Part shown: piece by piece, positions 1 to 60,022 of the stretch | Layout of the letters: each line of letters opens with the position of its first letter | How positions within the stretch are numbered: the stretch's first letter is position 1 | DNA from: Candidatus Nomurabacteria bacterium RIFCSPLOWO2_01_FULL_41_18 | GTDB taxonomy: Bacteria > Patescibacteriota > Minisyncoccia > Phycocordibacterales > UBA9973 | Direction: 5' to 3' | Assembly: GCA_001785865.1 (NCBI GenBank) | Contig: MFUZ01000006.1 | Location: 242,315-306,314, forward strand | Length of the DNA stretch: 64,000 nucleotides | Notes under the pieces: model-generated | Databases searched by the model: none | What the model was told of the DNA's origin: nothing | What the model saw: the letters and a program-made list of their open reading frames with translations, nothing else | Program-made: the position numbers and the translations under genes

Positions 1-673
1 TGAAATAATCGGCGAGACACTCGATGACGCAGTGGGCGAGGCGTTCGACAAAGTAGCTCGGATGCTCGATCTCCCCTATCCCGGCGGTCCACAGATCTCA
101 AAATTGGCAGAAGAACTTAGGGCAAAAGAAGAACAATATTTTCGGGGACTCCGCAGGACGGCCGGTCCTAGGACTGAGCAGATTTTCCTGCAGGAAAATC
201 GCGACCCCGAAAAAATTAGTTCTTCTTTTGCCCTACCTCGTCCTATGCTGTACAGTAAAAATTTTGATTTTTCTTTTTCTGGATTAAAAACTGCTGTTCT
301 ATATTTGATTAGAGATTTAGGCGGTATCGATAAACTTGACCAAATTACAAAAACAAAGATCGCCTTAGAGTTCGAAAATTCCGCTATTGAGTGCTTAATT
401 CACAAGACTAAAAAAGCAGTAGAAAAATACGGGGCAAAAACGCTGATAGTCGCTGGTGGTGTGGCTTGCAATATACATCTGCAAAGAGAGATGTCCGCCC
501 TAGGCGGATCCGCCTCGGGCGGAAAGAAAATCAAGATTTTGTTCCCTTCAAAAGGACTTGCTGGCGATAATTCTCTAATGATCGGCATTGCCGGATACTT
601 AAATTATATAAAAAATAAGAAAAAAGTCCCAAAATTAAATAGTATAAAAGCTACTGGCAATTTAAGGCTTTAA
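1..673 (+). CDS. tsaD: tRNA N6-adenosine threonylcarbamoyltransferase TsaD (Kae1/Gcp family), 5'-truncated by window edge
   Basis: Frame continues from base 1 (EIIGETLDDAVGEAFDKVARMLDLPYPGGPQISKLA...FALPRPMLYSKNFDFSFSGLKTAV...IVAGGVACN), matching the TsaD C-terminal half; contains an extra GC-rich segment relative to orthologs. Confidence 0.8.
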   Translation, partial: EIIGETLDDAVGEAFDKVARMLDLPYPGGPQISKLAEELRAKEEQYFRGLRRTAGPRTEQIFLQENRDPEKISSSFALPRPMLYSKNFDFSFSGLKTAVLYLIRDLGGIDKLDQITKTKIALEFENSAIECLIHKTKKAVEKYGAKTLIVAGGVACNIHLQREMSALGGSASGGKKIKILFPSKGLAGDNSLMIGIAGYLNYIKNKKKVPKLNSIKATGNLRL

Positions 674-693
674 TATGATATTATTGAGGAAGT

Positions 694-2877
694 ATGAGCG
701 TAAACGAGAAATTACTGAAACCCTATAATTCAAAAGAAACAGAAGATAGAATTTACAAACTATGGGAAGATAGTGGTTTTTTTAATCCAGACAAGAATAT
801 AGACCAAAATGCAAAGCCTTTCACAATTATAATGCCTCCAACCAACGCAAACGGATCATTGCACGCCGGACATGGCTTGGTGATGACTATAGAAGATATT
901 ATGGTGCGTTACAAAAGAATGCGGGGATTTAAGACCCTATGGCTCCCTGGCCTCGATCATGCCGGATTTGAAACACAGGTAGTCTACGAAAAAAAGTTAG
1001 AAAAAGAAGGGCGAACCAGATTTGAAATTGAACCAAAAAAACTATATGAAGAAATTCTTGATTTTACTCTCACTAATTCAAAAAATATAAAATCTCAAGC
1101 GCGAAAAATGGGAGCTTCTTGCGATTGGTCTCGTGAAAAATTCACACTGGACCCGGATATCGTAAAAATAGTCTACCAGACATTTAAGAAACTATCTGAT
1201 GACAATTTAGTATACAGAGGAAACAGGATAGTCAGCTGGTGTCCAAAACATCAAACATCTTTTTCTGATTTAGAAATATTAGACGAAGAGCGAACAGATA
1301 ATTTTTATTACTTGAAGTATGGGCCGTTTGTCATAGGCACTGCCCGACCGGAGACAAAATTCGGTGATAAATATGTAGTAATGCACCCAGACGATAAACG
1401 TTACAAAGAATACACAAACGATCAAAAGATAAAACTAGAATGGATAAATGGCCCCATTGAAGCCACTGTTATAAAAGATAAAGCTATTGATATGGAATTT
1501 GGAACAGGTGTTATGACAATCACTCCTTGGCACGATAATGCAGACTTTGATATTGCAGAAAGGCATAAACTGGATAAAGAACAGATCATCGATGAGAACG
1601 GCAAACTGCTTCCGATTGCCGGCGAATTTGCCGGACAACACATTAAAAAAGCTAGAGCACTGATTGTCGAAAAATTGCAGAAAAAGGGGTTAGTAGAGAA
1701 AATAGATGAAAAATACAAACACGTTGTTCGAACTTGTTATAAATGCGGAACAACCATCGAACCGCAAATAAAAAGCCAGTGGTTCATAAAAATGAAACCC
1801 CTAGCCGAAAAAGCTTTGGAAAAAATAGAAGACGGAGAAATCACTTATATTCCTGAACATTATAAAAAAATCACTACCCATTGGCTCAATAATATTATCG
1901 ATTGGAACATTTCGAGGCAAATTGTTTGGGGCATTCCCATACCAGCAAAAATATGCACAAAATGCGGGTCTGGTATGGTTGATTTGGAAAATAAAATAAA
2001 AAAGTGCACCTCTTGCGGTGGTGAAGTCATGCAAGATAAAGACACTTTTGATACTTGGTTTTCTTCAGGACAATGGCCTTTTGCGACGCTCGGCTATCCT
2101 GACAAAAATGATTTCAAAACATTTTATCCCACCGATGTCATGGAGACAGCCGGAGAAATTATATTTTTCTGGGTTTCCAGAATGATCATGCTCGGTTTGT
2201 ATGTTACCGGAGAAGTTCCTTTTAAAAATGTATACCTGCATGGTTTAGTTTTGGACGCCAAAGGATTAAAAATGAGTAAAAGTAAAGGAAATGTCATAGA
2301 CCCGCTCTCACTCACGGAAAAATACGGCACGGATGCATTCAGGATAGGATTGGTGATCGGCAATACACCCGGCACCTCGCTTGCATTAGCCGAAGAAAGA
2401 ATTAGGGGTTACGGAAAATTTGCAAATAAAATCTGGAATGCTACAAGATTTGTGCTAGAAAACACTCAGGATTACGAGGATGACAAAATAGAAATAAAAT
2501 ATGATGAAGAAGACGAAAAATCAGATGCGGAACTAAAAAAATTAATAACAGAAATTACGAAAGAAATGGATAACTATAAATTTTACATCGTTGCCGAAAA
2601 ACTTTATCACTATTTTTGGCACACTTTTGCTGATATAATAATAGAAAGATCAAAAAAGAAAATTATTGAAGGGAAAAATGCTGAATCGGCAAAAATGTTG
2701 CTTCGCACACAGCTGACTACCCTGCTCAAAGCGTTACACCCATTTATACCTTTTGTCACAGAAGAAATATGGGGAATGATACCTACCCGAAATACTACAC
2801 ATAACGTTGTAGGTATATCTGATCGTAAAAATCTGTTAATGATCGAAAAATGGCCCTATGACCGGGTCGACAAATAA
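694..2877 (+). CDS. valS: valine--tRNA ligase (class I aaRS, short form lacking C-terminal coiled-coil)
   Basis: HIGH-like PPTNANGSLHAGHG, WLPGLDHAGFETQ, VSWCPKHQTSFSDLEI, KMSKSKGN motifs; 727 aa. Confidence 0.8.
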   Translation: MSVNEKLLKPYNSKETEDRIYKLWEDSGFFNPDKNIDQNAKPFTIIMPPTNANGSLHAGHGLVMTIEDIMVRYKRMRGFKTLWLPGLDHAGFETQVVYEKKLEKEGRTRFEIEPKKLYEEILDFTLTNSKNIKSQARKMGASCDWSREKFTLDPDIVKIVYQTFKKLSDDNLVYRGNRIVSWCPKHQTSFSDLEILDEERTDNFYYLKYGPFVIGTARPETKFGDKYVVMHPDDKRYKEYTNDQKIKLEWINGPIEATVIKDKAIDMEFGTGVMTITPWHDNADFDIAERHKLDKEQIIDENGKLLPIAGEFAGQHIKKARALIVEKLQKKGLVEKIDEKYKHVVRTCYKCGTTIEPQIKSQWFIKMKPLAEKALEKIEDGEITYIPEHYKKITTHWLNNIIDWNISRQIVWGIPIPAKICTKCGSGMVDLENKIKKCTSCGGEVMQDKDTFDTWFSSGQWPFATLGYPDKNDFKTFYPTDVMETAGEIIFFWVSRMIMLGLYVTGEVPFKNVYLHGLVLDAKGLKMSKSKGNVIDPLSLTEKYGTDAFRIGLVIGNTPGTSLALAEERIRGYGKFANKIWNATRFVLENTQDYEDDKIEIKYDEEDEKSDAELKKLITEITKEMDNYKFYIVAEKLYHYFWHTFADIIIERSKKKIIEGKNAESAKMLLRTQLTTLLKALHPFIPFVTEEIWGMIPTRNTTHNVVGISDRKNLLMIEKWPYDRVDK

Positions 2878-2879
2878 AC

Positions 2880-3596
2880 ATGCTAACCAACGATCCAAAA
2901 ATTTTAGCAATAGCGTTCTTGGGAGGAATCATTCCTTCTCTTTTATGGCTGTGGTTCTGGATCAGGGAGGAACAGAAAAAAGCCGAACCCAAAGGAATCC
3001 TCGCCATGGTCTTCATCATGGGCATGCTATCAGTGGTCTTGGTCCTGCCGATCCAAGAATTCATCCAGTCGAATATCGACGGAGCGAGAGAGCGCCTCAT
3101 ACTCTGGGCAACTGCAGAAGAGATAATCAAATATCTGGCCGTAGTCATCATCCTTTTCAGGACCAGGTACATCGATGAGCCTATTGATTGGCCTATCTAT
3201 CTCATTACCGCCGCCTTGGGCTTCGCAGCCTTCGAAAACGCCCTATTTCTACAGAGATCGCTCACTCTCGACCAGACGACAGTCGGCCTTTTTACCGCAG
3301 CCTCTATAGGCCAGCTTCGATTTCTAGGCTCTACCCTTCTCCATGCTGTTTCAAGCGGAATGCTGGGCATAGCGCTCGGAATCTCACTTCATCTTTCTTT
3401 CTTTAAAAAGAAATCCTACCTTGCTGTCGGCCTTGTGCTCGCTATCGCCTTGCATAGTGTCTTTAATTTTTTTATAATAAAGATCAGAGTCAATGAAGTA
3501 AATTACTTTTTAGAAGTATTGAAAGTTTTCAGTTTCTTGTGGGTCGTCACTATTATTATCATGCTACTTTTTGAGAAAGTAAGAAGAATGACTTAA
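2880..3596 (+). CDS. PrsW-family intramembrane protease-like membrane protein
   Basis: Multi-TM; EExxK (TAEEIIKYL), FxxxE (AAFENALF) and conserved His motifs typical of PrsW family. Confidence 0.5.
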   Translation: MLTNDPKILAIAFLGGIIPSLLWLWFWIREEQKKAEPKGILAMVFIMGMLSVVLVLPIQEFIQSNIDGARERLILWATAEEIIKYLAVVIILFRTRYIDEPIDWPIYLITAALGFAAFENALFLQRSLTLDQTTVGLFTAASIGQLRFLGSTLLHAVSSGMLGIALGISLHLSFFKKKSYLAVGLVLAIALHSVFNFFIIKIRVNEVNYFLEVLKVFSFLWVVTIIIMLLFEKVRRMT

Positions 3597-3603
3597 AAAA
3601 TTT

Positions 3604-4086
3604 ATGGATAAAAAAAGAAGTTTTTGGGAAAGAATAACGGGAGGGATTCATGTCGAAGAGGAGGAATACGAAGAACCGAAGAAGAATTCAGTCGGCGGAG
3701 GCACGGGAAGCAAGAAAGATAAAAAAGGCAACGAATGGATCGAGGAAGAGAATGAGGAAGCGGAGCTCGCCGTGGATATTTATCAGACTCCGACCGACAT
3801 CATCATACAAACCTTCGTAGCCGGAGTAAAGCCGGACGACCTAGAACTGTCTATTGCGAGAGACATAGTGACCATAGTCGGAGCACGCGAGGAAAACCGA
3901 AACATAGACGAGGAAAATTATTTTACCAAGGAGCTCTATTGGGGAAGATTTTCCCGCACTATATCCCTACCCGTGGAAATTGAACCAGAAGAAGTCGAAG
4001 CCACAGAAAAACACGGCCTCCTCACTATCCGCCTGCAAAAAGTAGATAAAGAAAAGACCAATACTATCAAAGTCCGATCTATCTAG
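3604..4086 (+). CDS. Hsp20/alpha-crystallin family small heat shock protein
   Basis: Alpha-crystallin domain pattern (DIYQTP...ELSIARD..GLLTIRLQK) with acidic N-terminal extension. Confidence 0.8.
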   Translation: MDKKRSFWERITGGIHVEEEEYEEPKKNSVGGGTGSKKDKKGNEWIEEENEEAELAVDIYQTPTDIIIQTFVAGVKPDDLELSIARDIVTIVGAREENRNIDEENYFTKELYWGRFSRTISLPVEIEPEEVEATEKHGLLTIRLQKVDKEKTNTIKVRSI

Positions 4087-4221
4087 TAAAAGATTTCTTT
4101 TCTTTCTTTTTCTGTGCTTATGTGAGCCACAATAATTCGTTTTTCGTTAAAAACGAATTTTCCAGCCCCGGACTCAGTTGTTTTTCTTGCTAGAAAAACA
4201 TGCTTCCGTCGGCACAAAGCA

Positions 4222-4253
4222 CAGAAAAAGAGCACAGCAGTGTGCTCTTTTTC
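4222..4253. terminator. bidirectional intrinsic terminator hairpin (agagcaca-gcag-tgtgctct flanked by A-run and T-run), nested in larger inverted repeat ggcacaaagcac/gtgctttgtgcc
   Basis: Perfect 8-bp stem with A5 upstream and T5 downstream, between hsp20 3' end and tRNA-Phe 3' end. Confidence 0.55.
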
Positions 4254-4267
4254 ATGTAAGTGCTTTG

Positions 4268-4340
4268 TGCCGAGGACCAGAATCGAACTGGTGACCTATC
4301 CCTCTTCAGGGGAGCGCTCTACCAACTGAGCTACCTCGGC
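4268..4340 (-). tRNA. tRNA-Phe (anticodon GAA)
   Basis: Cloverleaf: GCCGAGG acceptor, GCTC/GAGC D-stem, anticodon loop CTGAAGA, TTCGATT T-loop; no encoded CCA. Confidence 0.85.
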
Positions 4341-4358
4341 ATATTTTTTCTCTTTAAA

Positions 4359-4601
4359 CTAGTCGCCAAGCTTTAAATTATTCAATGTCTCGCTTGCTCC
4401 GGCATATATCGATTTCAGCTGATCTACATATGGCTGAAGAAGATAAAAAGCGCCTATCGCAGAACCGATAATGAATATCCAATATACTGCCCTGGTAATG
4501 CTCGCAATACGCATGGAACGCTTCATAGAATGTAGTATCTTATTGTTCTCTTCCGAGAGACTGACACTCTTATTCAAAAGCTCCCTTTCTTCTGGCGACA
4601 T
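4359..4601 (-). CDS. hypothetical small membrane protein (80 aa, one TM)
   Basis: ORF between two tRNA genes; hydrophobic segment AVYWIFIIGSAIGAFYLL; no recognisable family. Confidence 0.4.
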   Translation of the reverse strand: MSPEERELLNKSVSLSEENNKILHSMKRSMRIASITRAVYWIFIIGSAIGAFYLLQPYVDQLKSIYAGASETLNNLKLGD

Positions 4602-5223: not shown

Positions 5224-7635
5224 TTAACTCTTCTTCTCGTGCTCTCCGATCGCCATGATGATTTTGATGACCGTGTCGGGATTGAGCGACATGCTGTCTA
5301 TCCCCTCCGACACTAGAAATTGTGCAAATTCCGGATAGTCGGACGGCGCTTGTCCGCAGATTCCGATATCCTTTCCCTTCTCTTTGCACTTACGGACTAT
5401 CTGCGACACCAATTTTTTCACTGCGGGATTATTTTCATTGGCTATATGAGTCACTATACCCGAATCGCGATCAAGACCCAGCGTAAGCTGAGTGAGGTCG
5501 TTCGAGCCGATTGACATACCGTCAAAAATGTCTAGAAATTCATCCGCCAAAAAGACATTCGAAGGGATCTCACACATCACGAATATTTTGAGCTTCTCAT
5601 CTTTTTTGCGATCGAGACCATGGACAGCCATGATTTCTACCACCTTCTGTCCTTCTTCCGGCGTCCTACAGAATGGGATCATGGGGACTACATTGGAAAG
5701 ACCCATGTCTTCCCGTACGCGCTTCATGGCGATACATTCCAAGCTGAAAGCATCTTTGAATTCAGGATCATAATAGCGCGATGCCCCACGCCAGCCGATC
5801 ATCGGGTTCTCTTCATGAGGTTCGTACAGATACCCGCCCAAGAGGGTGCGGTATTCATTGGTTTTGAAATCAGAAAAGCGGATTACTACTTCCTTTGGAT
5901 AAAACGTCGCCGCTATTTTTGCGATGCCTAAGGCGAGATTGTCGACATAGAATTGGGACTTGTCTTTGTAGAGAGGCGTGAGTTCGTCTATTCTCTTGAG
6001 CACCTTCTTTAATTCGGGAGTCTGCTTGCCAGCCTTTAATTTCTTATAGTCGATCAGGACATTCGGGTGCACACCGATATGATTCGCAATGATGAATTCG
6101 AGCCTGCCGAGCCCTACCCCTTCCGCAGGTAGATTGTGATTTTTGAACGCCTCGTCCGGAGAACCGATGTTCACCATTATCTTTGTATTTATTTTAGGAA
6201 TTTTATTCAAATGATGTTCGATTATTTGAAACGGCAAAATTCCTTCGTAAACGTTGCCAACATTGCCGGAAGAGCAATCTACGGTTATATTTTGGCCATT
6301 TTTGAGGATCTTGGTGGCATTGCCGGAGCCGACAATGCAGGGAATTCCGAGCTCCCGCGACACTATCGCCGCATGCGAAGTACGCCCGCCCTCATCCGTC
6401 ACGATGGCGCTCGCGATCTTCATGATAGGTTCCCAGTCCGGATCAGTGATCTTGGTTACGAGCACTTCCCCTTTCTTGAAGGCATTGATATTTTTTGCAT
6501 TGCTAAGGACGCGCACTTTGCCCGCGCCTATCTTGGATCCGACAGCGATACCTTTCACTCGCACATGTCCGGATTCTTTCAACTTATATTCTTTGAGCAC
6601 ATTCTTGTCTATCGCGGAAGCGACAGTCTCTGGGCGAGCTTGCACGATGAATAATTCGCCGGTCTTGCCGTCCTTGGCCCATTCGATATCCATTGGCTGA
6701 TAACGATCGTGCTTTTGTGAAAAATATTTTTCAATTTGCAGGCACCACTTCGCGAGCTTTACCACTTCAAGGTCAGTAAGACAGAATTTCTGCTGTTCAG
6801 AGGGAGCGACCTTATCTTCCTTGGTTCCATCCTTCCCATAGACGAGCTGGATGTTCTTATTGCCAAGATTCTTGGTGATGATAGGATACGGACTGCCATT
6901 CTCCAATGTCGGCTTAAAAACTATGAACTCGTCAGGGACGACTTTACCCTGCACGATGAACTCGCCCAATCCATAAATTCCATTTATTAAAATTATCTTA
7001 TCAAATCCCGTTTCGGTATCAATGGTAAAAGCCACCCCGGACGAAGACAAGTCGGAGCGCACCATACACTGGACGCCAACCGAAAGTGCCACATCAAAAT
7101 GAGAGAATCCTTTATCCGTACGGTAAGATATGGCTCTGTCTGTGAAAAGCGAAGCGATGCACTTTTTGGTCGCAGTAAGGACATTTTCAATGCCTTGAAT
7201 ATTCAAATATGTCTCTTGTTGACCGGCAAAAGAAGCTCCAGGCAGATCCTCCGCCGTAGCAGAAGAACGCACTGCGACCGCCAGATTATTTCCGTATTTT
7301 TTACCGAGATCTTCGTAAGATGTTGCGATTATGTCTTTGAGGTCTTGCGGAAGAGTCTCCTTCAGTATGGCTTCGCGGACTTTTTTACCCCGGACCTGCA
7401 GATTGCGCAGATCCTTTGTGTTTAAATCAGACAATATTCCTTTTATCTTTTCGTCCAGGCCAGTATTTTTAAAAAAATGGCGATAGGCATCCGCGGTGAG
7501 CGCGAATCCATCCGGTATGTTTACGCCGAGTGGCACCAAATTCGAATACATCTCTCCAAGAGCAGCATTCTTGCCGCCGACACTTCCAATATCACCGATA
7601 CCCACCTCGCTATACCACTTCACAAAATTTTCCAT
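5224..7635 (-). CDS. ppsA: phosphoenolpyruvate synthase (pyruvate, water dikinase)
   Basis: 803 aa; N-term WYSEVGIGDIGSVGGKNAALGEM, phosphohistidine domain GGRTSHAAIVSRELGIP, C-terminal PEP-utilizing TIM barrel. Confidence 0.85.
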   Translation of the reverse strand: MENFVKWYSEVGIGDIGSVGGKNAALGEMYSNLVPLGVNIPDGFALTADAYRHFFKNTGLDEKIKGILSDLNTKDLRNLQVRGKKVREAILKETLPQDLKDIIATSYEDLGKKYGNNLAVAVRSSATAEDLPGASFAGQQETYLNIQGIENVLTATKKCIASLFTDRAISYRTDKGFSHFDVALSVGVQCMVRSDLSSSGVAFTIDTETGFDKIILINGIYGLGEFIVQGKVVPDEFIVFKPTLENGSPYPIITKNLGNKNIQLVYGKDGTKEDKVAPSEQQKFCLTDLEVVKLAKWCLQIEKYFSQKHDRYQPMDIEWAKDGKTGELFIVQARPETVASAIDKNVLKEYKLKESGHVRVKGIAVGSKIGAGKVRVLSNAKNINAFKKGEVLVTKITDPDWEPIMKIASAIVTDEGGRTSHAAIVSRELGIPCIVGSGNATKILKNGQNITVDCSSGNVGNVYEGILPFQIIEHHLNKIPKINTKIMVNIGSPDEAFKNHNLPAEGVGLGRLEFIIANHIGVHPNVLIDYKKLKAGKQTPELKKVLKRIDELTPLYKDKSQFYVDNLALGIAKIAATFYPKEVVIRFSDFKTNEYRTLLGGYLYEPHEENPMIGWRGASRYYDPEFKDAFSLECIAMKRVREDMGLSNVVPMIPFCRTPEEGQKVVEIMAVHGLDRKKDEKLKIFVMCEIPSNVFLADEFLDIFDGMSIGSNDLTQLTLGLDRDSGIVTHIANENNPAVKKLVSQIVRKCKEKGKDIGICGQAPSDYPEFAQFLVSEGIDSMSLNPDTVIKIIMAIGEHEKKS

Positions 7636-10104: not shown

Positions 10105-10106
10105 AA

Positions 10107-10138
10107 TTACGTAATGTATTACGTAATACATTACGTAA
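10107..10138. repeat. 32-bp perfect palindrome TTACGTAATGTATTACGTAATACATTACGTAA (copy 1) between convergent stops; probable bidirectional terminator
   Basis: Perfect self-complementarity; contains TACGTAA three times at 12-nt spacing; second near-identical copy at 56849-56882. Confidence 0.7.
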
Positions 10139-10146
10139 CTAAAATC

Positions 10147-12567: not shown

Positions 12568-12951
12568 CTATTTAAACCAATTTTTCCAGAAAAAGAGAAA
12601 AGAAAAGAAGCCTCCGGACTTCTTTTCTGGAACCTCGGACTGGTTCTCATCTTCCACGATGATGATCACGCCTTCTCCTTCTTTCACCACTGGAAATTTT
12701 TCACGTATACTTTCTTCGATTCCGCTTGAGGTTCCCAATTTGGCTATCTCTGCCGTGAGTTTTAATTTTTGCTCCTCCAGCTCGGTCACTTGGCTCTCTG
12801 CAATTTTTTTATTTTCCCTGGTTATAGACATCTTGCCCATAAAAACTATCACGCTCCAGGCAAAAATAAGCAACAATATAAACAAAATTGCCAAAACAGG
12901 CCTTGAATGTAAAATATTTCGCCAACCTCTTTTTCTTTGAAAACTTTTCAT
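12568..12951 (-). CDS. septum formation initiator family protein (FtsB/DivIC-like)
   Basis: N-terminal TM then coiled coil (ESQVTELEEQKLKLTAEIAKL); 127 aa. Confidence 0.5.
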   Translation of the reverse strand: MKSFQRKRGWRNILHSRPVLAILFILLLIFAWSVIVFMGKMSITRENKKIAESQVTELEEQKLKLTAEIAKLGTSSGIEESIREKFPVVKEGEGVIIIVEDENQSEVPEKKSGGFFSFLFFWKNWFK

Positions 12952-13077
12952 AGTATGATACTATCAGTATATGCTTTTCAACAAAAAACATCAAAAAAAG
13001 ATCCAGATCATCTGGGCGATAGTGAGTATTCTCATCATCATCAGCATGATCTTATTGTATTCTCCGATATTTCAAAT

Positions 13078-13208
13078 AAACTAGAAACTCGTTGCAGGCG
13101 TACTTTTTAGAAAGCCTTGCGCAGGCGGACGCGCCGAGCAGTTCGCTCCGCAAGCTTGCGGAGATAGATTGCTTTATAAAAAGTATGCCAAGAAAGAGTT
13201 TCTAGTTT
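13078..13208. repeat. GC-rich ~130-bp nested inverted-repeat element (terminal 13-bp IR AAACTAGAAACTC/GAGTTTCTAGTTT)
   Basis: Outer perfect 13-bp IR, second IR GTACTTTTTAGAAAGC/GCTTTATAAAAAGTA(T), central 18-bp perfect palindrome CTCCGCAAGCTTGCGGAG; overlaps lepA stop. Confidence 0.5.
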
Positions 13209-15136
13209 TCCCCGCTACGCATCATCTTCAAAAATACGTCTTGGGGAATGTTTACTTTGCCTCTTTCTTTCATTTTCTTTTTGCCTTTCTTTTGTTTCTC
13301 ACGAAGTTTCATTTTGCGAGTTATATCACCTCCATACATATGTGCAGTAACATCTTTTTTCATACCAGAAAGCGTGCGTGATGAGATGATGCGTCCAAAT
13401 GCTTTACCTTGGATTTTCAAAGTAAACATTTGCCTAGGCAACAAGCTCTCTAATTTTACAACAGACTCTTCGGCTTCTATTTCTACCCTTTTCTTTGAGA
13501 CAACTTTAGAAAAAGCTGGTACAGGTTCATCGGCAACCAACACATCAAGTCGGGTGACATCTGCTTCACGATTTTCGGCTATATTGTAAGATATTGATCC
13601 ATAGCCAGATGAAGTGCTTTTTAGTTCATCAAAGAAATTGCGCATCAATTCACGAAGCGGCATTTTTACAGATATAGATGAACGGTTGTCTCCGAAATTC
13701 TCAGTCTCCCCTACTTCTGCTTCATGATCAAACAATATCTGCATAATGTTACCTAGATATTCCACAGGAGTGATTATTTTTGCATTTACCCACGGCTCAA
13801 AAATAGTTTTAATATTACTGTCATCTGGAAAAAAGTACGGCGAATAAATCTTCTGCCTCTTCGGCAGATCGCCGATGAGGCGATTTCCAACATTAGTATT
13901 ATATTCTACTTCATATACGATAGAGGGCGTAGTGATGACAAGATTCAAATTAAATTCTCGCTTCAGTCTTTCAGTAATGATTTCTAAATGAAGCATTCCA
14001 AGAAAACCACAGCGAAAACCTCGCCCCAGAGATCCTGAAGATTCTTCTTCAAAAGAAAAAGACGAATCTGAAAGTTTTAGTTTTCCTAAAGAAAGCTTTA
14101 GTAAGGCAAAATCGTCCGCATCCTCGGGAAAAACACTCGCCCAAACCACCGGCATCGGCTGCATATATCCCGGAAGTGCAGGCAGTGGATTCGCAGATTT
14201 TGTAATCGTATCTCCAACAGAAGCAATACCAGGCTTTTTTATGCCTGTGACAATATAGCCGGTATCTCCAGCTGAGAGACTGTCTCGTGGAGTTTCTTCT
14301 GGTGAAAAAGTCCCGACCTCAAGCGCTGTAAATTTTTCCCCTGAGACAGCAAAAAGCAAGCTGTCACCCCGCCTCACCTTACCATCAAATAACCTCACAA
14401 AAACTATTACCCCTTTATGATTTGAATATTTAAAATCAAACACTAAAGCGCTCAAAACATTTTCACTTTTATTTTCATTTTTATAATTTTCAATTGGCGC
14501 CGGAACACGTTTTATAACTTCCTTTAAAAGATTTTCCACCCCTTCTCCTGTGCGACCTGAAACTAAAAGCACTTCATTTGGATCGCAATTTAAAAGTTTT
14601 ACCACTTCTTCTTTTACTTCCGACACCCTAGCCAAAGGTGAATCAATTTTAGAAAGGACAGGAATTATTACAGAGGCCCCTTCACCTCTCCCATTGCCAG
14701 AGCGGGGTAGGCGAGCCATAGCGAGCGTGGTAAGCGTCTGCGCCTGCACCCCCTGTGTGGAGTCAACCAGTAAAATAGACCCTTCCACGGCCTTCAGAGC
14801 CCTAGAGACTTCATAAGAAAAATCCACGTGTCCGGGAGTGTCAATGAGATTCAGTATGTAAACCTCATCCCCCGCCTTCTCCTGGGGGGAGAAGGAGCCC
14901 CCTCGCCTTCCAGGAGAGGGGTTAGGGGTGAGGTGGGTGGTGTATTCCATGCGAACGGGTTGCATTTTGATTGTAATACCTCGTTCACGCTCAAGCTCCA
15001 TAGAGTCTAGTACTTGATCACGCATTTTTCGCGCTTCTACTGTATGCGTGATCTCGAGCATTCTGTCTGCCAAAGTACTTTTGCCATGGTCTATGTGGGC
15101 GATTATTGAAAAGTTTCTGATGTGTTTTAGGTCCAT
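13202..15136 (-). CDS. lepA: elongation factor 4 (LepA)
   Basis: NFSIIAHIDHGKSTLADR, DTPGHVDF, full five-domain EF4 layout; carries ~20-aa GC-rich in-frame insert (LTPNPSPGRRGGSFSPQEKAG). Confidence 0.9.
   Translation of the reverse strand: MDLKHIRNFSIIAHIDHGKSTLADRMLEITHTVEARKMRDQVLDSMELERERGITIKMQPVRMEYTTHLTPNPSPGRRGGSFSPQEKAGDEVYILNLIDTPGHVDFSYEVSRALKAVEGSILLVDSTQGVQAQTLTTLAMARLPRSGNGRGEGASVIIPVLSKIDSPLARVSEVKEEVVKLLNCDPNEVLLVSGRTGEGVENLLKEVIKRVPAPIENYKNENKSENVLSALVFDFKYSNHKGVIVFVRLFDGKVRRGDSLLFAVSGEKFTALEVGTFSPEETPRDSLSAGDTGYIVTGIKKPGIASVGDTITKSANPLPALPGYMQPMPVVWASVFPEDADDFALLKLSLGKLKLSDSSFSFEEESSGSLGRGFRCGFLGMLHLEIITERLKREFNLNLVITTPSIVYEVEYNTNVGNRLIGDLPKRQKIYSPYFFPDDSNIKTIFEPWVNAKIITPVEYLGNIMQILFDHEAEVGETENFGDNRSSISVKMPLRELMRNFFDELKSTSSGYGSISYNIAENREADVTRLDVLVADEPVPAFSKVVSKKRVEIEAEESVVKLESLLPRQMFTLKIQGKAFGRIISSRTLSGMKKDVTAHMYGGDITRKMKLREKQKKGKKKMKERGKVNIPQDVFLKMMRSGEN
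14868..14940 (-). repeat. in-frame GC-rich palindromic element inside lepA (two hairpin units: CCTTCTCC-TGGGG-GGAGAAGG and CCCCTCGCCTTCCAGGAGAGGGGTTAGGGGTGAGG)
   Basis: Sequence family shared with copies in leuS (28866-28908) and giant protein gene (21118-21160); absent from E. coli LepA at this position. Confidence 0.7.
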
Positions 15137-30558: not shown

Positions 30559-30573
30559 TGTTACATAATAAAC

Positions 30574-30657
30574 AAAAAACCGCCTTTATGCAAAAGCTCC
30601 CGATTTTTTAGCTTTATAAAAAGCTCTTAAAATCGCAGTCCTTTAGGGCGGTTTTTT
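30574..30657 (-). terminator. long composite hairpin (AAAAAACCGCC ... GGCGGTTTTTT) between upstream membrane-protein gene and leuS start
   Basis: 11-bp outer stem with internal sub-hairpins, U-run on minus-strand transcript immediately before leuS RBS. Confidence 0.35.
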
Positions 30658-30679
30658 GTTTAAGTCTTTTTAAATATTA

Positions 30680-31794: not shown

Positions 31795-32772
31795 TTATAC
31801 GCCCCAAACCGCCGTATTGGCAAGTGGGATGATGCGATTGTTGGACTTTTCTAATACACAAAGCTCACCAGCTTCTATTTGGCCTTCAAAGTTTTTCATA
31901 GTTTCCTCTAGTGCATACCCAAGAGAAAGTGAAGAAGAATCTATCGCATACGAGGTTAAAATAACAAAAAGTGGCTTGTCACTCAAAACTTTTTGCACTG
32001 CTGATAAAAGCTTTGGCAACATTTCTTCTATTTTCCAAACTTCTCCTTTTGGTCCCCTACCAAACTTTGGTGGATCCATTATTATGGCATCATATTTGTT
32101 TCCCCTCTTTGCTTCTCTCTCTAGGAATTTTATTGCATCATCTTCTATGATTCGCATGCCTGTTAGTCCTAAATGACTATTGAGTTTTTCATTTTCTTTT
32201 GCCCAAGCGAGGCTTTGCTTTGAAGCATCGAGGTGCGTCACTACTGCGCCAGCGCGAAGCGCAAACAAGCTCGCCACTCCCGTATAGCCGAACAAGTTCA
32301 AAAATCTAGGTCTGGAAGCAGAGGGAGAATTCTGGCGGCGGAAGGTTCCGTCCGAAGGATGGAGGAATGTCGCAGAATTCTCCTTCTGTAAAAGACCACC
32401 AACACTAGCGCTGATCTTTTCTTCAATAAAATCCCAGTGGCAAGCCTGCTCTGGGAAAAATCCCAAGTGTCGGAAAGGAGTAGGTGAAGCCAGAAATTTA
32501 ATGCCTTTATATTGCATCTCCCATCTATCTTGAATCTTTTCTTTCATCTTCCACCCAGCTTTTGCTCCCACTTTTGAACTCCAAAATTTACCGTCAGCTT
32601 TATTCCATTCTTTTTCCGACAAAGTTTTTGCCCAAACAGCATCTTCATAAGGACGCACAAAAACATATTTACCAAATCGCTCCAACTTTTCCCCCTCACC
32701 CGTATCTAGGAGCTCATAATCACCGAAGTCTGTGGAATCTTTCAAATAAAAAATTTTAATTTGGTTTTGCAT
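31795..32772 (-). CDS. class I SAM-dependent rRNA methyltransferase (RlmI/RlmK-like)
   Basis: LFGYTGVASL..HLDASK SAM-binding motif and DPPKFGRGPKGEVWKIEE catalytic region; contains 60-bp GC-rich in-frame palindromic insert. Confidence 0.65.
   Translation of the reverse strand: MQNQIKIFYLKDSTDFGDYELLDTGEGEKLERFGKYVFVRPYEDAVWAKTLSEKEWNKADGKFWSSKVGAKAGWKMKEKIQDRWEMQYKGIKFLASPTPFRHLGFFPEQACHWDFIEEKISASVGGLLQKENSATFLHPSDGTFRRQNSPSASRPRFLNLFGYTGVASLFALRAGAVVTHLDASKQSLAWAKENEKLNSHLGLTGMRIIEDDAIKFLEREAKRGNKYDAIIMDPPKFGRGPKGEVWKIEEMLPKLLSAVQKVLSDKPLFVILTSYAIDSSSLSLGYALEETMKNFEGQIEAGELCVLEKSNNRIIPLANTAVWGV
32324..32383 (-). repeat. 60-bp (20-codon) GC-rich in-frame insert bounded by perfect 11-bp inverted repeat GGAGAATTCTG/CAGAATTCTCC
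   Basis: Read directly; length multiple of 3; lies in linker of methyltransferase. Confidence 0.55.
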
Positions 32773-55999: not shown

Positions 56000-56857
56000 A
56001 TGGATAAATTAAGCTTTGTATTTTGGGGAACACCCGATGTAGCCTCTGAGACACTTGAAACCTTAAAGCAAGCTAGATTTTTACCGTCTTTGATTGTTAC
56101 ATCTCCAGATGCAAAAAAAGGGAGAGGCATGCATATGGAAGCATCCCCCGTAGCCATTTTTGCAGAACAAAATAAAATACCTTGTCTTAAACCCGAAAAA
56201 CTTGACGAAGAATTTTGTAATAAACTAAAGCCTAGCTGTCTAAAGCCTAATTGCCTATTTATTGTGGTTGCTTACGGCAAAATAATACCTGAAAATATTA
56301 TAAATATGCCGAAATTGGGCTCTATCAATATACATTATTCACTTCTCCCAAAATATCGTGGAGCTTCTCCTGTAGAATCTGCGATCTTAAACGGAGATAC
56401 GGAAACAGGAGTGACTATACAAAAAATGGTATATAAATTGGATGCAGGAAACATATTAGCGCAAGAAAAGGTGCAAATATCGCCTGATGAAACAGCTCCA
56501 GAATTAAGAAAAAAATTAATTAAAATAGGTGGAGAACTTTTGGTAAAAACTTTAGGAACCCCCTCCTTCCTCCCCCTTATCAAGGGGGAGGTGCCGAAAG
56601 TGGTAGGGATCGAGCAAGATGAATCTCAAGCCACATTTTGCAAAAAAATTAAAAAAGAAGACGGACTGATAGATTTAAATGCCGATGCAGTTACAAACTA
56701 TAATAAATGGAGAGCCTATGTCTTTTGGCCAAGAACTTTCTTTTTTGTAAATGGAAAGAGAATAATAGTTACTGACGCAAAGCTTATAGATGGAAAGTTT
56801 GTGATTAAAAAAATCATTCCAGAAAACGGAAAAGAAATGAATTACAAAGTTACGTAA
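56000..56857 (+). CDS. fmt: methionyl-tRNA formyltransferase
   Basis: N-terminal formyltransferase (NIHYSLLPKYRGASPVESAILNGD) and C-terminal domain; small GC hairpin insert at 56569-56591. Confidence 0.85.
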   Translation: MDKLSFVFWGTPDVASETLETLKQARFLPSLIVTSPDAKKGRGMHMEASPVAIFAEQNKIPCLKPEKLDEEFCNKLKPSCLKPNCLFIVVAYGKIIPENIINMPKLGSINIHYSLLPKYRGASPVESAILNGDTETGVTIQKMVYKLDAGNILAQEKVQISPDETAPELRKKLIKIGGELLVKTLGTPSFLPLIKGEVPKVVGIEQDESQATFCKKIKKEDGLIDLNADAVTNYNKWRAYVFWPRTFFFVNGKRIIVTDAKLIDGKFVIKKIIPENGKEMNYKVT

Positions 56858-56882
56858 TGTATTACGTAATACATTACGTAAC
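56849..56882. repeat. 34-bp perfect palindrome GTTACGTAATGTATTACGTAATACATTACGTAAC (copy 2) overlapping fmt and hpf stop codons
   Basis: Identical 32-bp core to copy at 10107-10138; same convergent-gene context. Confidence 0.7.
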
Positions 56883-57281
56883 TTAATACTTCGAAGTAAA
56901 AGGATTTCGTTTTGAGAGACCCTTCATCATCTTTTTGACACTGCGGGCTCCGCGATACAAGAGCGTCTGACTGCGATCTTTGTTTTTATTTATTTCGTAG
57001 TAGAGAGTGTCTTTAATGGCATCTATCGCCTGATATAAATCTTCCTTATCAGAGCTAGAATAAAATTCTTTGCCGTCTATCTTGATCAGACAATCTGCAT
57101 GGAAAACCTCGCCTGATTTATGATGATTTGTGGACTTGCCTACTTCGAAATTTACCATCACCTTTCCTCCCCCTTCTTTTATCCTGGTAAGAAGCTTTTC
57201 CAAGTTGGTAACCCTCTTCAAAACATAGTCTTTTATAGCTTCAGTTAATTCAATATTTTTACCCTGTAAATTGATTTGCAT
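56883..57281 (-). CDS. hpf: ribosome hibernation promoting factor (HPF/RaiA/YfiA family)
   Basis: MQINLQGKNIELTEAIKDYV... typical RaiA fold signature. Confidence 0.8.
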   Translation of the reverse strand: MQINLQGKNIELTEAIKDYVLKRVTNLEKLLTRIKEGGGKVMVNFEVGKSTNHHKSGEVFHADCLIKIDGKEFYSSSDKEDLYQAIDAIKDTLYYEINKNKDRSQTLLYRGARSVKKMMKGLSKRNPFTSKY

Positions 57282-57790: not shown

Positions 57791-60022
57791 CTACTCCTGA
57801 TTGATTTCCATTATCAATCTAGCTAGTAGATAAGCTATGGTCGATTCCGCACCCTGATTTAGATTTACTCCCTCTTCCTGAACTCCGTCATAAGTGCCTC
57901 CTGTCGAATGCGTATAGACCATCTGTTTGGACAGATTATTTCCGAAAAACCAGTCAAAAGCAAGCATCATTTTTTGGCGATAGATAGGATCATCCTCCAC
58001 CAATATCATCTTGTGAAGCGCGAGAATGAGAGCAGAGACTTCTTCCGGCTGCTGGTCATAGCGCTCTTTTTTCCCGTCTTTCTTAAACCAGCCACCTTGC
58101 CCGACTGGTACACAAATATCTCCTTCAAAGGACTGCTCAATCAAGAAATCAAGCGAAGCTTTGGCTACTTTGAAATATTTCGGATTCCCAGAAACGGAAT
58201 AGGCCGCAAGCAGTGCATCGGGCAAAATTCCGTTCGAATATGCGAGGATCTTTTCAAACCATTTCCATTTATCGTCGCTTGTCTCTTCAAACATATCAAC
58301 CAGAAAATCCGCATAAAATTCTATATGCTTGCGAGCCTCGTCAGTGTTCTCATGATGAGATAGATTTTCCACGAAAGCTTTGATGTAAAAGGCTGCCGCC
58401 CTGGGAGAGATGACCTTCTTATGCAATTTGAACTGTTTTTGGAAAAGAGTCGAAGCGTGTTTCTTGACACTTCCAATCTTGGTATTGGTCGATGCCACCG
58501 ACAAGGCCCAGAGGGCGCGAGCATTGGAATCTTCCAAATTTTCATTTTGATTGAGTTCATTGTGCGGATTCCTGTCGGTATTGAAATAGTTTACAAACCC
58601 TCCAGTATCGATAGAAGAACGTTCAATGAATTTGAGAAAAATATTTATGAGCGACTCCGCCTCCTCTGAGGGATACAGGTCGTTGTACCAAGAGAGAGCA
58701 ACCAACGCGCGGGCATTGTCATCCAGAGTATATCCCCATTTCGGATCGGGATTGCTCAATAAGGCAAATTGGAAGATCCCAAAGTTATCGGTCATCTTCT
58801 TGATGTGGGCAATGTTGACGGGAAGCATGAATTTATTTTTCTCCGTTGCCCTCGACAAAAATGGAGAAAATATATTCATATAAGAAAGAGCGACATTCGG
58901 CCAAGTCATATTTCTGGTATAAAGATATGCGGATTTCCCCATGTTCTCTAATATTTTTTTGTTTTCAAGCAGTTTCAAAACCTCGAGTTCAATGCTTTTA
59001 GAATCACTGAACGGAACCAGCCTGCCGACCTCCTTGGTAACGATTTCTTTAGCCTGCATGAAGGCAGTGGAAATCACCGCCCTGCCTGCGCCAAGTGCAT
59101 AGGTCAATGTGCCTGAAACTGCTTGATCAGGATTTTGTGAAAGCGCCAAATATATGTCAGTGGCCTGTAAATAGAGCAGAAGATCATTTCGAGACAGGTA
59201 CTTGTTGACAAATACCACATTTTTTTCCACTCCAAGATTTTTAGCCTGAGCTATGAGCTTGTTCCTGTAAATTTCTCCTTCTCTCCGGAGCACGACTGGG
59301 TGAGTCTGCCCCAAAACTAAATATATCGTGTTGGGATATTTTTCTAAAATTCCTGGCAGAGCCGCAATGGCGTACTCTATTCCCTTTCCGCTACTTAGAA
59401 GCCCGAAGGTGGCTAAAATAGTTTTGTTCTCAAGTTTCAACTCTTTTTGGGCAGGCAAAGTATCCACATACTGCTGGGGATGAATCCCATGCGGAGTGAC
59501 TTTTATTTTCTCCGCCTTAGCTCCGTAAATTTCAATCAGGAGCTTTTTAGACAGCTCGGTCATGACGATCTGCAGATCAGAATGACGGATTATCTTTTCC
59601 ATCACCGATTTCATTCCGCTCTCGGGGCGCGGCAACACGGTATGAAAAGTCACCGCCGACGGCTTTTCTAATTTCTCCAAAAAAAGAGCGATGTTATTGC
59701 CGTAATTTTCGCCGAAAATTCCGAACTCATGCTGAATAGACACCATTTTGACCTCGGGCATAGCATTCAGCTTATCCGCTACAGAAATATAATCCACCTT
59801 ATTGTTCTCCTCAATTTGAAAAATTACCTTTGGAGAATAAAGAGGTGCGGTGACTGGCCCCACATCCATCGCGACAACTTTGGATTCTACTTTCTCTAGA
59901 AAAAGCTCATCCGAATAGCTGATCAAGTCCGCGCTGAAGTTCGCAATCCCACACTCGCGCGGAGGATAGGTCGTCACATAGACGACACACCCTATGTCCT
60001 TCTCTTTGGTGAGAGTAGTCAT
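57791..60022 (-). CDS. bifunctional-architecture protein: N-terminal GT4/GT1-type glycosyltransferase fused to C-terminal six-hairpin (alpha/alpha)6 glycosidase-like domain
   Basis: GT-B C-terminal Rossmann motif (GTLTYALGAGRAVISTAF) followed by ~330-aa domain with GGF/W-rich toroid-like pattern. Confidence 0.55.
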   Translation of the reverse strand: MTTLTKEKDIGCVVYVTTYPPRECGIANFSADLISYSDELFLEKVESKVVAMDVGPVTAPLYSPKVIFQIEENNKVDYISVADKLNAMPEVKMVSIQHEFGIFGENYGNNIALFLEKLEKPSAVTFHTVLPRPESGMKSVMEKIIRHSDLQIVMTELSKKLLIEIYGAKAEKIKVTPHGIHPQQYVDTLPAQKELKLENKTILATFGLLSSGKGIEYAIAALPGILEKYPNTIYLVLGQTHPVVLRREGEIYRNKLIAQAKNLGVEKNVVFVNKYLSRNDLLLYLQATDIYLALSQNPDQAVSGTLTYALGAGRAVISTAFMQAKEIVTKEVGRLVPFSDSKSIELEVLKLLENKKILENMGKSAYLYTRNMTWPNVALSYMNIFSPFLSRATEKNKFMLPVNIAHIKKMTDNFGIFQFALLSNPDPKWGYTLDDNARALVALSWYNDLYPSEEAESLINIFLKFIERSSIDTGGFVNYFNTDRNPHNELNQNENLEDSNARALWALSVASTNTKIGSVKKHASTLFQKQFKLHKKVISPRAAAFYIKAFVENLSHHENTDEARKHIEFYADFLVDMFEETSDDKWKWFEKILAYSNGILPDALLAAYSVSGNPKYFKVAKASLDFLIEQSFEGDICVPVGQGGWFKKDGKKERYDQQPEEVSALILALHKMILVEDDPIYRQKMMLAFDWFFGNNLSKQMVYTHSTGGTYDGVQEEGVNLNQGAESTIAYLLARLIMEINQE

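Follow-up and report, generated by a model that had tools for sequence, protein, structure and literature searches.

The nested palindrome of 131 nt that stands at the 3' end of lepA in the window (by which is meant the whole stretch of DNA analysed, 64 kb in length) is probably one copy of a dispersed, non-coding palindromic repeat family of Paceibacterota, with members of around 100-165 nt and a MITE- or RPE-like selfish character, and to this reading we attach a probability of about 0.7. A member of the family is a long rod, with arm sequences that are specific to each subfamily, at the end of which stands a conserved core of 59 nt made up of two hairpins, P2 being held in its sequence and P3 in its structure only. 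Apparently the family is undescribed, in that a search of the literature on CPR, Patescibacteria and Parcubacteria found no description of such elements, which with incomplete coverage is weak evidence of novelty. The element would be a non-autonomous mobile repeat, with the mobilising enzyme seemingly not encoded by the element, and any role as a 3' hairpin would be secondary. A wider proposal, on which we are evenly poised, is that of a phylum-wide CPR palindromic family that is a counterpart of the Rickettsia palindromic elements (RPEs), with a covarying core kept on one strand, sited repeatedly at dyads of short palindromes at gene ends and in-frame, in either orientation, in tsaD, leuS, tgt and uvrD, and moved as a folded single strand.

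Architecture of the element

The outermost part of the element (Table 1), with termini reading CTAGAAACTCGTYGCA ... CCAAGAAAGAGTTTCTAG, is a terminal inverted repeat of 13 nt, AAACTAGAAACTC/GAGTTTCTAGTTT, which is perfect as an earlier note on this DNA had claimed and is matched without mismatch nowhere else in the window. Taken over their full length the arms (13078-13115 and 13171-13208, 38 nt each) show 84% complementarity and constitute the longest inverted repeat of the 64-kb window (I1). The second, near-perfect inverted repeat of the earlier note is present as GGCGTACTTTTTA (13097-13109) facing TAAAAAGTATGCC (13177-13189), and it departs from perfection at one position only, where the + strand has a G.U pair and the − strand would have A opposite C, a mismatch; this inner-rod G.U pair is invariant in three of three subfamily copies (pair columns 29-116). 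Confirmed too were the central perfect palindrome of 18 bp, CTCCGCAAGCTTGCGGAG, which is unique in the window and makes up P3 (CUCCGCA AGCU UGCGGAG, with UUCG linking P2 to P3 and AUAGAUU following P3), the GC-rich core set in AT-rich DNA (66% GC over 13114-13172 against 27-40% in the flanking 100-nt windows), and the overlap of the right arm with the lepA stop codon.

Table 1. Positions of the element and its parts, of the adjoining genes, and of related copies (numbering of the window, or of the named locus)
Feature	Position	Strand	Remarks
Nested palindrome, 131 nt	13078-13208	+	Sense strand from family covariance models and G.U pairs
Outer helix, 5' arm AAACTAGAAACTC	13078-13090	+	Holds first CTAG (13081-13084) and small-ORF TAG stop (13082-13084)
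Outer helix, 3' arm GAGTTTCTAGTTT	13196-13208	+	Holds second CTAG (13202-13205) and lepA TAG (− strand, 13204-13202)
6x6 internal loop, GTTGCA opposite AAGAAA	13091-13096, 13190-13195	+	Both sides kept in L097 copies
Inner rod, 5' strand, GGCGTACTTTTTA-G-AAAGC	13097-13115	+	Pairs with 13171-13189
Inner rod, 3' strand, GCTTT-A-TAAAAAGTATGCC	13171-13189	+	
Hairpin P2, UUGC-GCA-GGCG-GACG-CGCC-GA-GCAG	13117-13141	+	Sequence-conserved module; consensus CGCAG-helix-GRYG-helix-CGAG
Hairpin P3, perfect palindrome CTCCGCAAGCTTGCGGAG	13146-13163	+	Structure kept family-wide, sequence replaced in other copies
lepA (elongation factor 4)	13202-15136	−	Stop codon inside right arm of element
Conserved, unannotated 37-codon ORF MLFNKKHQKKIQIIWAIVSILIIISMILLYSPIFQIN	12971-13084	+	Converges on lepA; stop inside left arm of element
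DivIC/FtsB-like gene	12568-12951		Pfam DivIC, 35.6 bits
Second, diverged window copy	118-235	+	In-frame in tsaD (ORF 32-673); 30-nt arms, core 146-205
L097 c1	4299-4430		Between divergent genes
L097 c2	3811-3939		Between two same-strand genes; 3' end carries a 43-nt tandem duplication
L097 fragment	206-237		
L047 copy	2824-2936		Upstream of lepA; 52 (R1) and 63 (R2) bits
L007 and L043 copies			lepA 3' ends, antisense to lepA as in the window
L188 copy	7444-7499		Intergenic
L186 copy	3645-3742		Inside leuS, in-frame; 37 (R1) and 67 (R2) bits

The predicted fold is a 46-bp rod closing a three-way junction from which P2 and P3 project as two hairpins. On the + strand it reaches −61.9 kcal/mol (z −6.76), a stability attained by none of 200 shuffles, and on the − strand −55.5 kcal/mol (z −4.83). 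Two covariance models, R1 for the full element and R2 for the 59-nt core, give the same polarity, with R1 scoring the element at 136.8 bits on the + strand versus 43.9 on the −, and R2 scoring the core at 67.8 bits on the +. There are no ORFs of at least 40 aa inside the element, and every listed ORF that touches it enters from the flanks.

A number of known structures were considered and set aside. Rfam gave nothing on the element, whether at the gathering threshold across the window or at E<=10 across 12900-13350, and so 6S, SRP, self-cleaving ribozymes and other known RNA families were rejected, the first two being those that the earlier note had wished to see compared. P2 is not a K-turn, as its internal loop is 3x2 and holds no tandem G.A pairs, and a hammerhead core was rejected with no CUGAUGA/GAAA to be seen. 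Nor does an integron attC site fit, since AAACTAGAAACTC/GAGTTTCTAGTTT do not conform to the RYYYAAC...GTTRRRY core sites and there is neither an array nor an integrase context.

A probable insertion between two overlapping stop codons

The earlier note had placed the element between lepA and the FtsB-like gene, which is right for the region but not for direct adjacency, as a conserved 37-codon ORF intervenes. This is a membrane-protein ORF whose peptide is conserved in 25 related loci, and which has no gene call on the source contig and no Pfam family. The TAG of the small ORF lies in the left arm of the element and that of lepA in the right arm, and so the element fills the gap between two convergent stops.

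The genome belongs to the Paceibacterota (CPR), and the MAGs that supplied its lepA relatives bear the labels Paceibacterota, Nomurabacteria and related groups. In 25 loci lepA faces the small ORF. The stop-to-stop spacer is 0-6 nt in fifteen of these loci, 10-19 nt in four, 38-51 nt in three and at least 117 nt in the remaining three, the last being the window (117 nt), L007 (149 nt) and L058 (199 nt). The closest relatives, namely L182 (from the same sample), L183 and L186, with LepA 85-86% identical, are all without the element at the lepA junction. In L011 and L012 the junction reads ...GAAAATTAGTTTA..., that is ...GAAAAT TAG TTTA..., where the window has ...GAAAAC TAG [AAACTC...GAGTTTC TAG] TTTA..., and so some 121 nt have been added in the window relative to these relatives, with a CTAG at each end; the empty sites of L011 and L012 have a single TAG/CTA at the CTAG position. 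Empty and filled states are thus seen at two orthologous sites, the lepA/small-ORF junction at the DNA level and, in protein alignments, the tsaD site discussed below.

Judged from these sequences the empty site would be a 10-nt palindrome, AAACTAGTTT, in which both stop codons overlap as CTAG. Insertion would then have occurred at the dyad of AAACTAGTTT, where the stops of lepA and the 37-codon ORF overlapped, with a gain of about 121 nt; a CTAG left at each end of the insertion would let both genes retain a TAG stop with neither protein altered. Since CTAG is itself palindromic, a target duplication of 4 bp (or of TA) and a part of the terminal repeat are equally admissible readings of it, and the check for target-site duplications that the earlier note had proposed comes out accordingly, with a CTAG at both ends that can be taken in either sense. 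The direct-repeat flank CTAG is found in the window copy and L097 c1 only. At the CTAG positions L097 c2 has CAAA/TTTG, an inverted repeat, and the L047 flanks are likewise inverted and not direct.

Pairing runs on into locus-specific flanks in three intergenic copies, with AAA/TTT in the window, GCAAATTT/AAATTTGC at L097 c1 and GGAGGCAAAAAAGA/TCTATTTTGCCTCC at L047. Either the copies were inserted at the dyad of palindromes that already existed, it would seem, or the stem was extended later, and for the window the empty sites of the relatives favour insertion at a pre-existing dyad.

Related copies between genes

A search for other copies, as had been proposed from the start, was made with blastn (word size 7), which at the sequence level found no second copy either within the window or among 80 lepA loci. 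Covariance models were needed; these brought out a second window copy together with others elsewhere. A metagenome scan was run with one pattern made from the terminal 10-mers, CTAGAAACTC-N90-120-GAGTTTCTAG. It returned 20 matches, of which one is real (L097, contig Ga0210057_1005799, 15.7 kb); the other 19 were rejected as unrelated palindromes that share only the selected 10-mers, and are by a rough estimate about the number expected by chance. Three core patterns run against viral contigs gave only chance matches in high-GC genomes and no family member.

The two full L097 copies, c1 and c2, are 73-77% identical to the element and share its termini, which are not common to other subfamilies. 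Aligned with the window copy they give a mean column identity of 84% and 45 shared pairs, 14 of which have compensatory changes. Such changes reach the terminal helix, with AAACTAGAAACTC/GAGTTTCTAGTTT in the window versus AAACAAAAAAATC/GAGTTTTTTGTTT, and P3 is wholly replaced within the three-copy alignment, going from CUCCGC...GCGGAG to AUUUUC...GAAAAU. Among the further copies of Table 1, that of L043 stands where the convergent partner of lepA is ruvC, and so the insertion there is probably independent. Partial copies occur in L029 and L046. There are two copies in the 64-kb window, two and a fragment in 15 kb of L097, and two in 21 kb of L188, where the copies are of mixed orientation within one contig. 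The intergenic contexts of the copies are convergent, tandem and divergent.

Conservation of the two-hairpin core

The core structure is under selection. Across 14 cores 95.4% of the pairs are standard and both sides have changed in 14 of 17 pairs, these pair counts being somewhat inflated by the fitting of the alignments of the cores to the structure in the model. The covariation score of 0.752 compares with 0.209 +/− 0.029 for shuffles, none of 500 reaching 0.752, and falls to 0.18 or below when partners are slid by 1-3 columns. The consensus reads CGCAG-[3-4 bp G/C helix]-GRYG-[helix]-CGAG ... AGCA-[6-7 bp hairpin, loop CARCAR]-AUGCGNG. Loop and junction nucleotides of the core are invariant, and P3 shows double changes in nine of its nine pairs. 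A simple descriptor of P2 has 23 matches in about 0.9 Mb versus 3-9 in shuffles, with known members making up about half of the matches.

The outer arms pair in every copy, and their sequence is common only within the subfamily formed by the window and L097 copies. Of 14 copies, which being related are not independent trials, 12 have a sense strand whose fold is more stable than that of its complement, and this regardless of host-gene direction. With the structure kept preferentially on one of the two strands, whatever the direction of the host gene, we infer that it is as a folded single strand, be it ssDNA or RNA, that the element is mobilised or selected. The strong covariation and the sequence-conserved P2 exceed what a decaying selfish repeat would need, and could reflect a function, for example that of an RNA or DNA module to which a protein binds.

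In-frame copies in housekeeping genes

The in-frame trait belongs to other members of the family, the copy at 13078-13208 lying between genes. The diverged window copy in tsaD scores 19.1 bits with R2 (E 0.002, filters off, 64 kb), coincides with an inverted repeat with 30-nt arms (I5) and is translated as ...RAKEEQYFRGLRRTAGPRTEQIFLQENRDPEKISSSFALPRP.... At one site in TsaD an insert of 27-28 aa is present in about half of the best 120 homologues (Paceibacterota), and the segment running from YPGGP to LPRP is 22-24 aa in around 40 of these best 120 and 46-55 aa in around 45. Most of the longer TsaD inserts prove to be translations of the element, which differ in frame and orientation, for example GTPQGDGPRTEQIFQQKNCDPEK, GVSQADGPRGSAPRARGDSDPEK and GSLSPRARGALPLGSSACETPRK. 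At the DNA level the core model matches the tsaD insert in six of the seven genomes examined, on the gene strand in four and on the opposite strand in two.

The LeuRS insert of L186, ...GSLSPLASGALTLGSSACETPRQ..., is the same antisense-frame peptide as that in TsaD inserts. A profile of this peptide was searched against 1.84 billion representative proteins and matched within TGT (at two positions), between the domains of a UvrD helicase and at the end of a GIY-YIG protein, as well as small spurious ORFs laid over intergenic copies. Three of the top profile matches, P0241, P0244 and P0250, were discarded as false positives, as these proteins are large, rich in repeats and furnished with Ig-like or DUF11 domains, and the match covers short stretches only.

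The repeated finding of the family at lepA 3' ends, in the same orientation in three of three cases, and at a single tsaD site could reflect selective retention and not a target preference.

Origin of the element and its rivals

As to how the element came to lie where it does, the MITE suggested by the earlier note comes closest of its three candidates, and agrees in size, in terminal repeats, in site polymorphism and in the existence of copies elsewhere; what did not turn up is a parent transposase with matching ends, as neither the window nor about 0.9 Mb of related loci nor the single metagenome scan for the terminal repeats yielded an autonomous IS with the same terminal repeats. Descent from a REP/BIME-like or IS200/IS605-derived element, with a Y1 (HUH) transposase or RAYT recognising P2 on ssDNA, seems to us unlikely; this would be a specific mechanistic version of the mobile-repeat reading. 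P2 as a short hairpin with the conserved flanks CGCAG...CGAG is indeed reminiscent of REP and IS608 end hairpins, the structure of the element is kept on one strand regardless of host-gene orientation, and one related genome does encode a protein of the PF01797 Y1_Tnp family near lepA. However this protein occurs in that one related locus only (L186), tblastn with it drew a blank both in the window and in 882 kb of related loci, the 100-165-nt rod closed by long arms is unlike REP units or IS200/IS605 ends, and the mixed orientation within the L188 contig also speaks against it.

A functional structured RNA, cis-acting or small, would have its core binding a host protein at paralogous functional loci, with the in-gene copies secondary, and could draw on the strong covariation of P2 and P3, the invariant loop and junction nucleotides, the folding advantage of the sense strand in 12/14 (related) copies and the fold z-score of −6.8. 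It is nonetheless decidedly unlikely given that the family, besides matching no Rfam family, occurs in both orientations with respect to host mRNA and inside the ORFs of at least four different housekeeping genes, as well as in convergent, tandem and divergent intergenic settings, and that the closest relatives do without the element at the lepA locus. A promoter scan gave no promoter-like site directly upstream on the + strand, where the DNA is coding sequence of the small ORF. The 6S- or SRP-like small RNA of the earlier note was given up on like grounds, having no Rfam match at E<=10 and having members within ORFs in both orientations. Very improbable indeed is a bidirectional terminator with an in-place origin at the junction of lepA with the small ORF, even if the position exactly between convergent stops, the UUUU that follows the rod on the + strand with a U-rich stretch on the − strand, and the unrelated hairpins of 38-51 nt that other relatives have at the same junction (the one in L186 resembling a normal terminator) all point that way. 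In most relatives the stops are 0-6 nt apart and a hairpin is wholly lacking, clear homologues sit in non-terminator contexts that include ORF interiors, and the closing helix is A/U-rich with only four U after it on the + strand; the element was not reported by a scan for the intrinsic-terminator consensus (a short G+C-rich stem-loop with a U-tract directly after it, at least five U in eight). The elaborate terminator put forward in the earlier note is not supported as an origin, and the single-copy case with a simple terminator conserved in relatives, which that note had named as speaking against its own view, is not what is seen, since copies exist and the closest relatives are without the element.

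On the preferred reading, that of a mobile palindromic repeat, the element most likely has no dedicated function at the lepA locus and would be a passenger there. Transcription of the two convergent genes would carry it into the 3' end of either mRNA, and there the rod may act at most as a 3' barrier or a terminator-like hairpin, and a rod of 46 bp in the 3' UTRs could block exonucleases or polymerases.

Relation to known bacterial repeats

The nearest parallel seems to be with the RPEs, which are non-coding palindromes of about 100-150 bp in a reduced genome, found between genes and in-frame in housekeeping genes to which they add a short peptide (PMC10969869). The present family likewise consists of non-coding palindromic repeats found in-frame, here in tsaD, leuS, tgt and uvrD, the resemblance being one of behaviour only, and no mobilising enzyme is known for either. 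The two differ in that RPEs belong to Alphaproteobacteria and the present family to CPR/Paceibacterota, in that the tsaD site here is filled in both orientations and in several reading frames, and in that it is the internal two-hairpin core and not the whole element that is conserved across the present subfamilies.

The ERIC (or IRU) sequences of enterobacteria are imperfect palindromes of about 127 bp, intergenic and transcribed, often at gene 3' ends, and their RNA stem-loops can change mRNA stability (PMC10969869). They are like the present element in size, in being imperfect palindromes, in location at gene 3' ends and in forming a long stem-loop. ERIC sequences are conserved along their whole length and are mostly extragenic, and we know of no description of a three-way-junction core with covariation in them. 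The Correia elements (CREE) of Neisseria are co-transcribed with their neighbours into hairpins that undergo RNase III processing (PMC10969869). Shared with these are small size and bounding by terminal inverted repeats and, if CTAG is taken as a target duplication, a very short one centred on TA. In Correia elements that very short target duplication accompanies conserved 26-bp terminal repeats with promoters and IHF sites, and there are hundreds of near-identical copies per genome; the termini of the present family, in contrast, vary between subfamilies.

The SPRITE, RUP and BOX repeats of Streptococcus pneumoniae are small and structured, some of them terminator-like, and they cluster and insert into one another (PMC10969869), with which the palindromic flanks of the L047 and L097 c1 copies may be compared. 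The present family shares with REP/BIME a short conserved hairpin as the recognisable unit, a strand-specific structure and intergenic dispersal, and differs in its rods of 100-165 nt that also lie in-frame and in that no RAYT/Y1 was found in the window or in the majority of related loci. A REP unit measures 20-40 nt, has a conserved 5' tetranucleotide of the GTAG type and depends on a genomic RAYT, and the ends of IS200/IS605 do not take the form of long terminal inverted repeats. For RUP there is a link to a known IS, whereas no parent IS was found for the present family, and to our knowledge there is no sequence relation between the SPRITE, RUP and BOX repeats and the present family. With MITEs the element has in common its length (131 nt, within about 50-500 bp), its terminal inverted repeats, the lack of a transposase ORF and site polymorphism, and it departs from them in that across subfamilies the conserved part is the internal structured core and not the termini.

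Implications

CPR/Patescibacteria have tiny genomes that are thought poor in repetitive and mobile DNA, yet insertions for which there is no explanation abound in their proteins and rRNAs. A repeat that spreads between genes and also in-frame into essential genes would explain part of the inserts in CPR proteins, and if the wider proposal is true a phylum-wide family could be the source of many of the unexplained peptide inserts there. At the lepA locus the flagged copy would be an ordinary one, its hairpin a passenger and not a gene or a conserved regulator. The family can also serve as a marker of annotation errors, given the spurious small ORFs called over intergenic copies and the real 37-codon ORF that was missed. 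More broadly, the RPE phenomenon would be extended from Rickettsia to a second reduced-genome lineage, which may offer a new system for testing how such elements move.

Small reading frame and hairpins at the lepA 3' junction

The junction at the 3' end of lepA holds hairpins in other species too, and L002, L005, L186, L029 and L058 carry unrelated hairpin inserts of 40-200 nt at the same place, several of the inserts there taking the lepA stop codon into their stem. That of L186 looks like a normal terminator. Beyond the junction in the window lies a 37-codon ORF, the peptide of which is conserved across 25 related Paceibacterota loci and is predicted to form one hydrophobic helix; no gene is called there on the source contig and no Pfam family was found for it. 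On the lepA strand, some 60 nt past the studied palindrome, the hairpin CCAGATGATCTGG with ATCTTTTTTT after it resembles a terminator (window 13003-13015, minus strand); it overlaps the coding sequence of this ORF, which runs on the opposite strand. The matching stretch is not palindromic in those relatives checked by eye (L011, for example).

At its other end the small ORF diverges from divIC on the minus strand, with only 19 nt between the two start codons (window 12952-12970), and so either the promoters lie each inside the other gene or the mRNAs are almost leaderless. This ATATACTGATAGTATCATACT region is itself partly palindromic, and other palindromic inserts are seen right at the divIC start in the related loci L002, L006, L007 and L016.

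Positions of the small ORF, the inserts and the further inverted repeats
Feature	Position	Strand	Context
37-codon ORF MLFNKKHQKKIQIIWAIVSILIIISMILLYSPIFQIN	window 12971-13084	+	between lepA and divIC
In-frame lepA insert THLTPNPSPGRRGGSFSPQEKAGDE, 25-26 aa	window 14864-14938	-	lepA codons 67-91
Second, diverged copy of the studied family	window 118-235	+	in-frame within tsaD ORF 32..673
leuS linker inverted repeats	L183:5899-6070; L186:3600-3790		
Further long inverted repeats	window 30569-30662, 4105-4231, 58965-59126, 32319-32388		

Other palindromes and a transposase gene

Elsewhere in the window a palindrome of about 34 nt, GTTACGTAATGTATTACGTAATACATTACGTAAC, occurs in two copies (10105-10140 and 56849-56883), the former directly after a TAG triplet, and these may represent another small repeat or terminator-like family. 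The four further long inverted repeats have perfect or near-perfect arms of 13-16 nt set 38-136 nt apart, and the only match among them to the covariance model of the family's two-hairpin core is weak (4129-4199; 11.3 bits, E 0.29). A Y1 transposase gene (PF01797, RAYT/IS200-like, 221 aa) is present in one relative, at L186:18081-18746 on the minus strand and about 6 kb from lepA; neither the window nor the other fetched loci contain a homologue.

Inserts within lepA, leuS and tsaD

Palindromic DNA is also read in frame within conserved genes. At the DNA level the longer lepA insert in the window forms a nested, GC-rich hairpin (-47 kcal/mol across some 117 nt), and its palindromic family is not that of the studied element. 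Among LepA homologues the insert is found also in P0002 and partly in P0003, and is missing from P0005, P0020, P0045 and P0063. Around codons 147-158 lepA has a second, smaller variable insert, LPRSGNGRGEGA.

In leuS of both L183 and L186 a long inverted repeat makes up the variable linker of LeuRS, which lies between the KVWR motif and LLHKTIKKV. That of L186 is a clear member of the studied family, whereas in L183 the palindrome has a differing core, which points to an old insertion whose core has since turned over.

The diverged family copy in tsaD lengthens the product by some 27 aa, and the same position holds an insert, which may run in either orientation, in about half of the best 120 TsaD homologues. 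Other insert types found there, SPHPSPLLAKERG and HLAPLLDKEGAGGGNS...GTPPSKGGEE (P0140, P0178, P0189, P0216, P0138 and P0146), resemble the window's lepA insert. Several families of palindromes seem to have the tsaD site as a hot spot.
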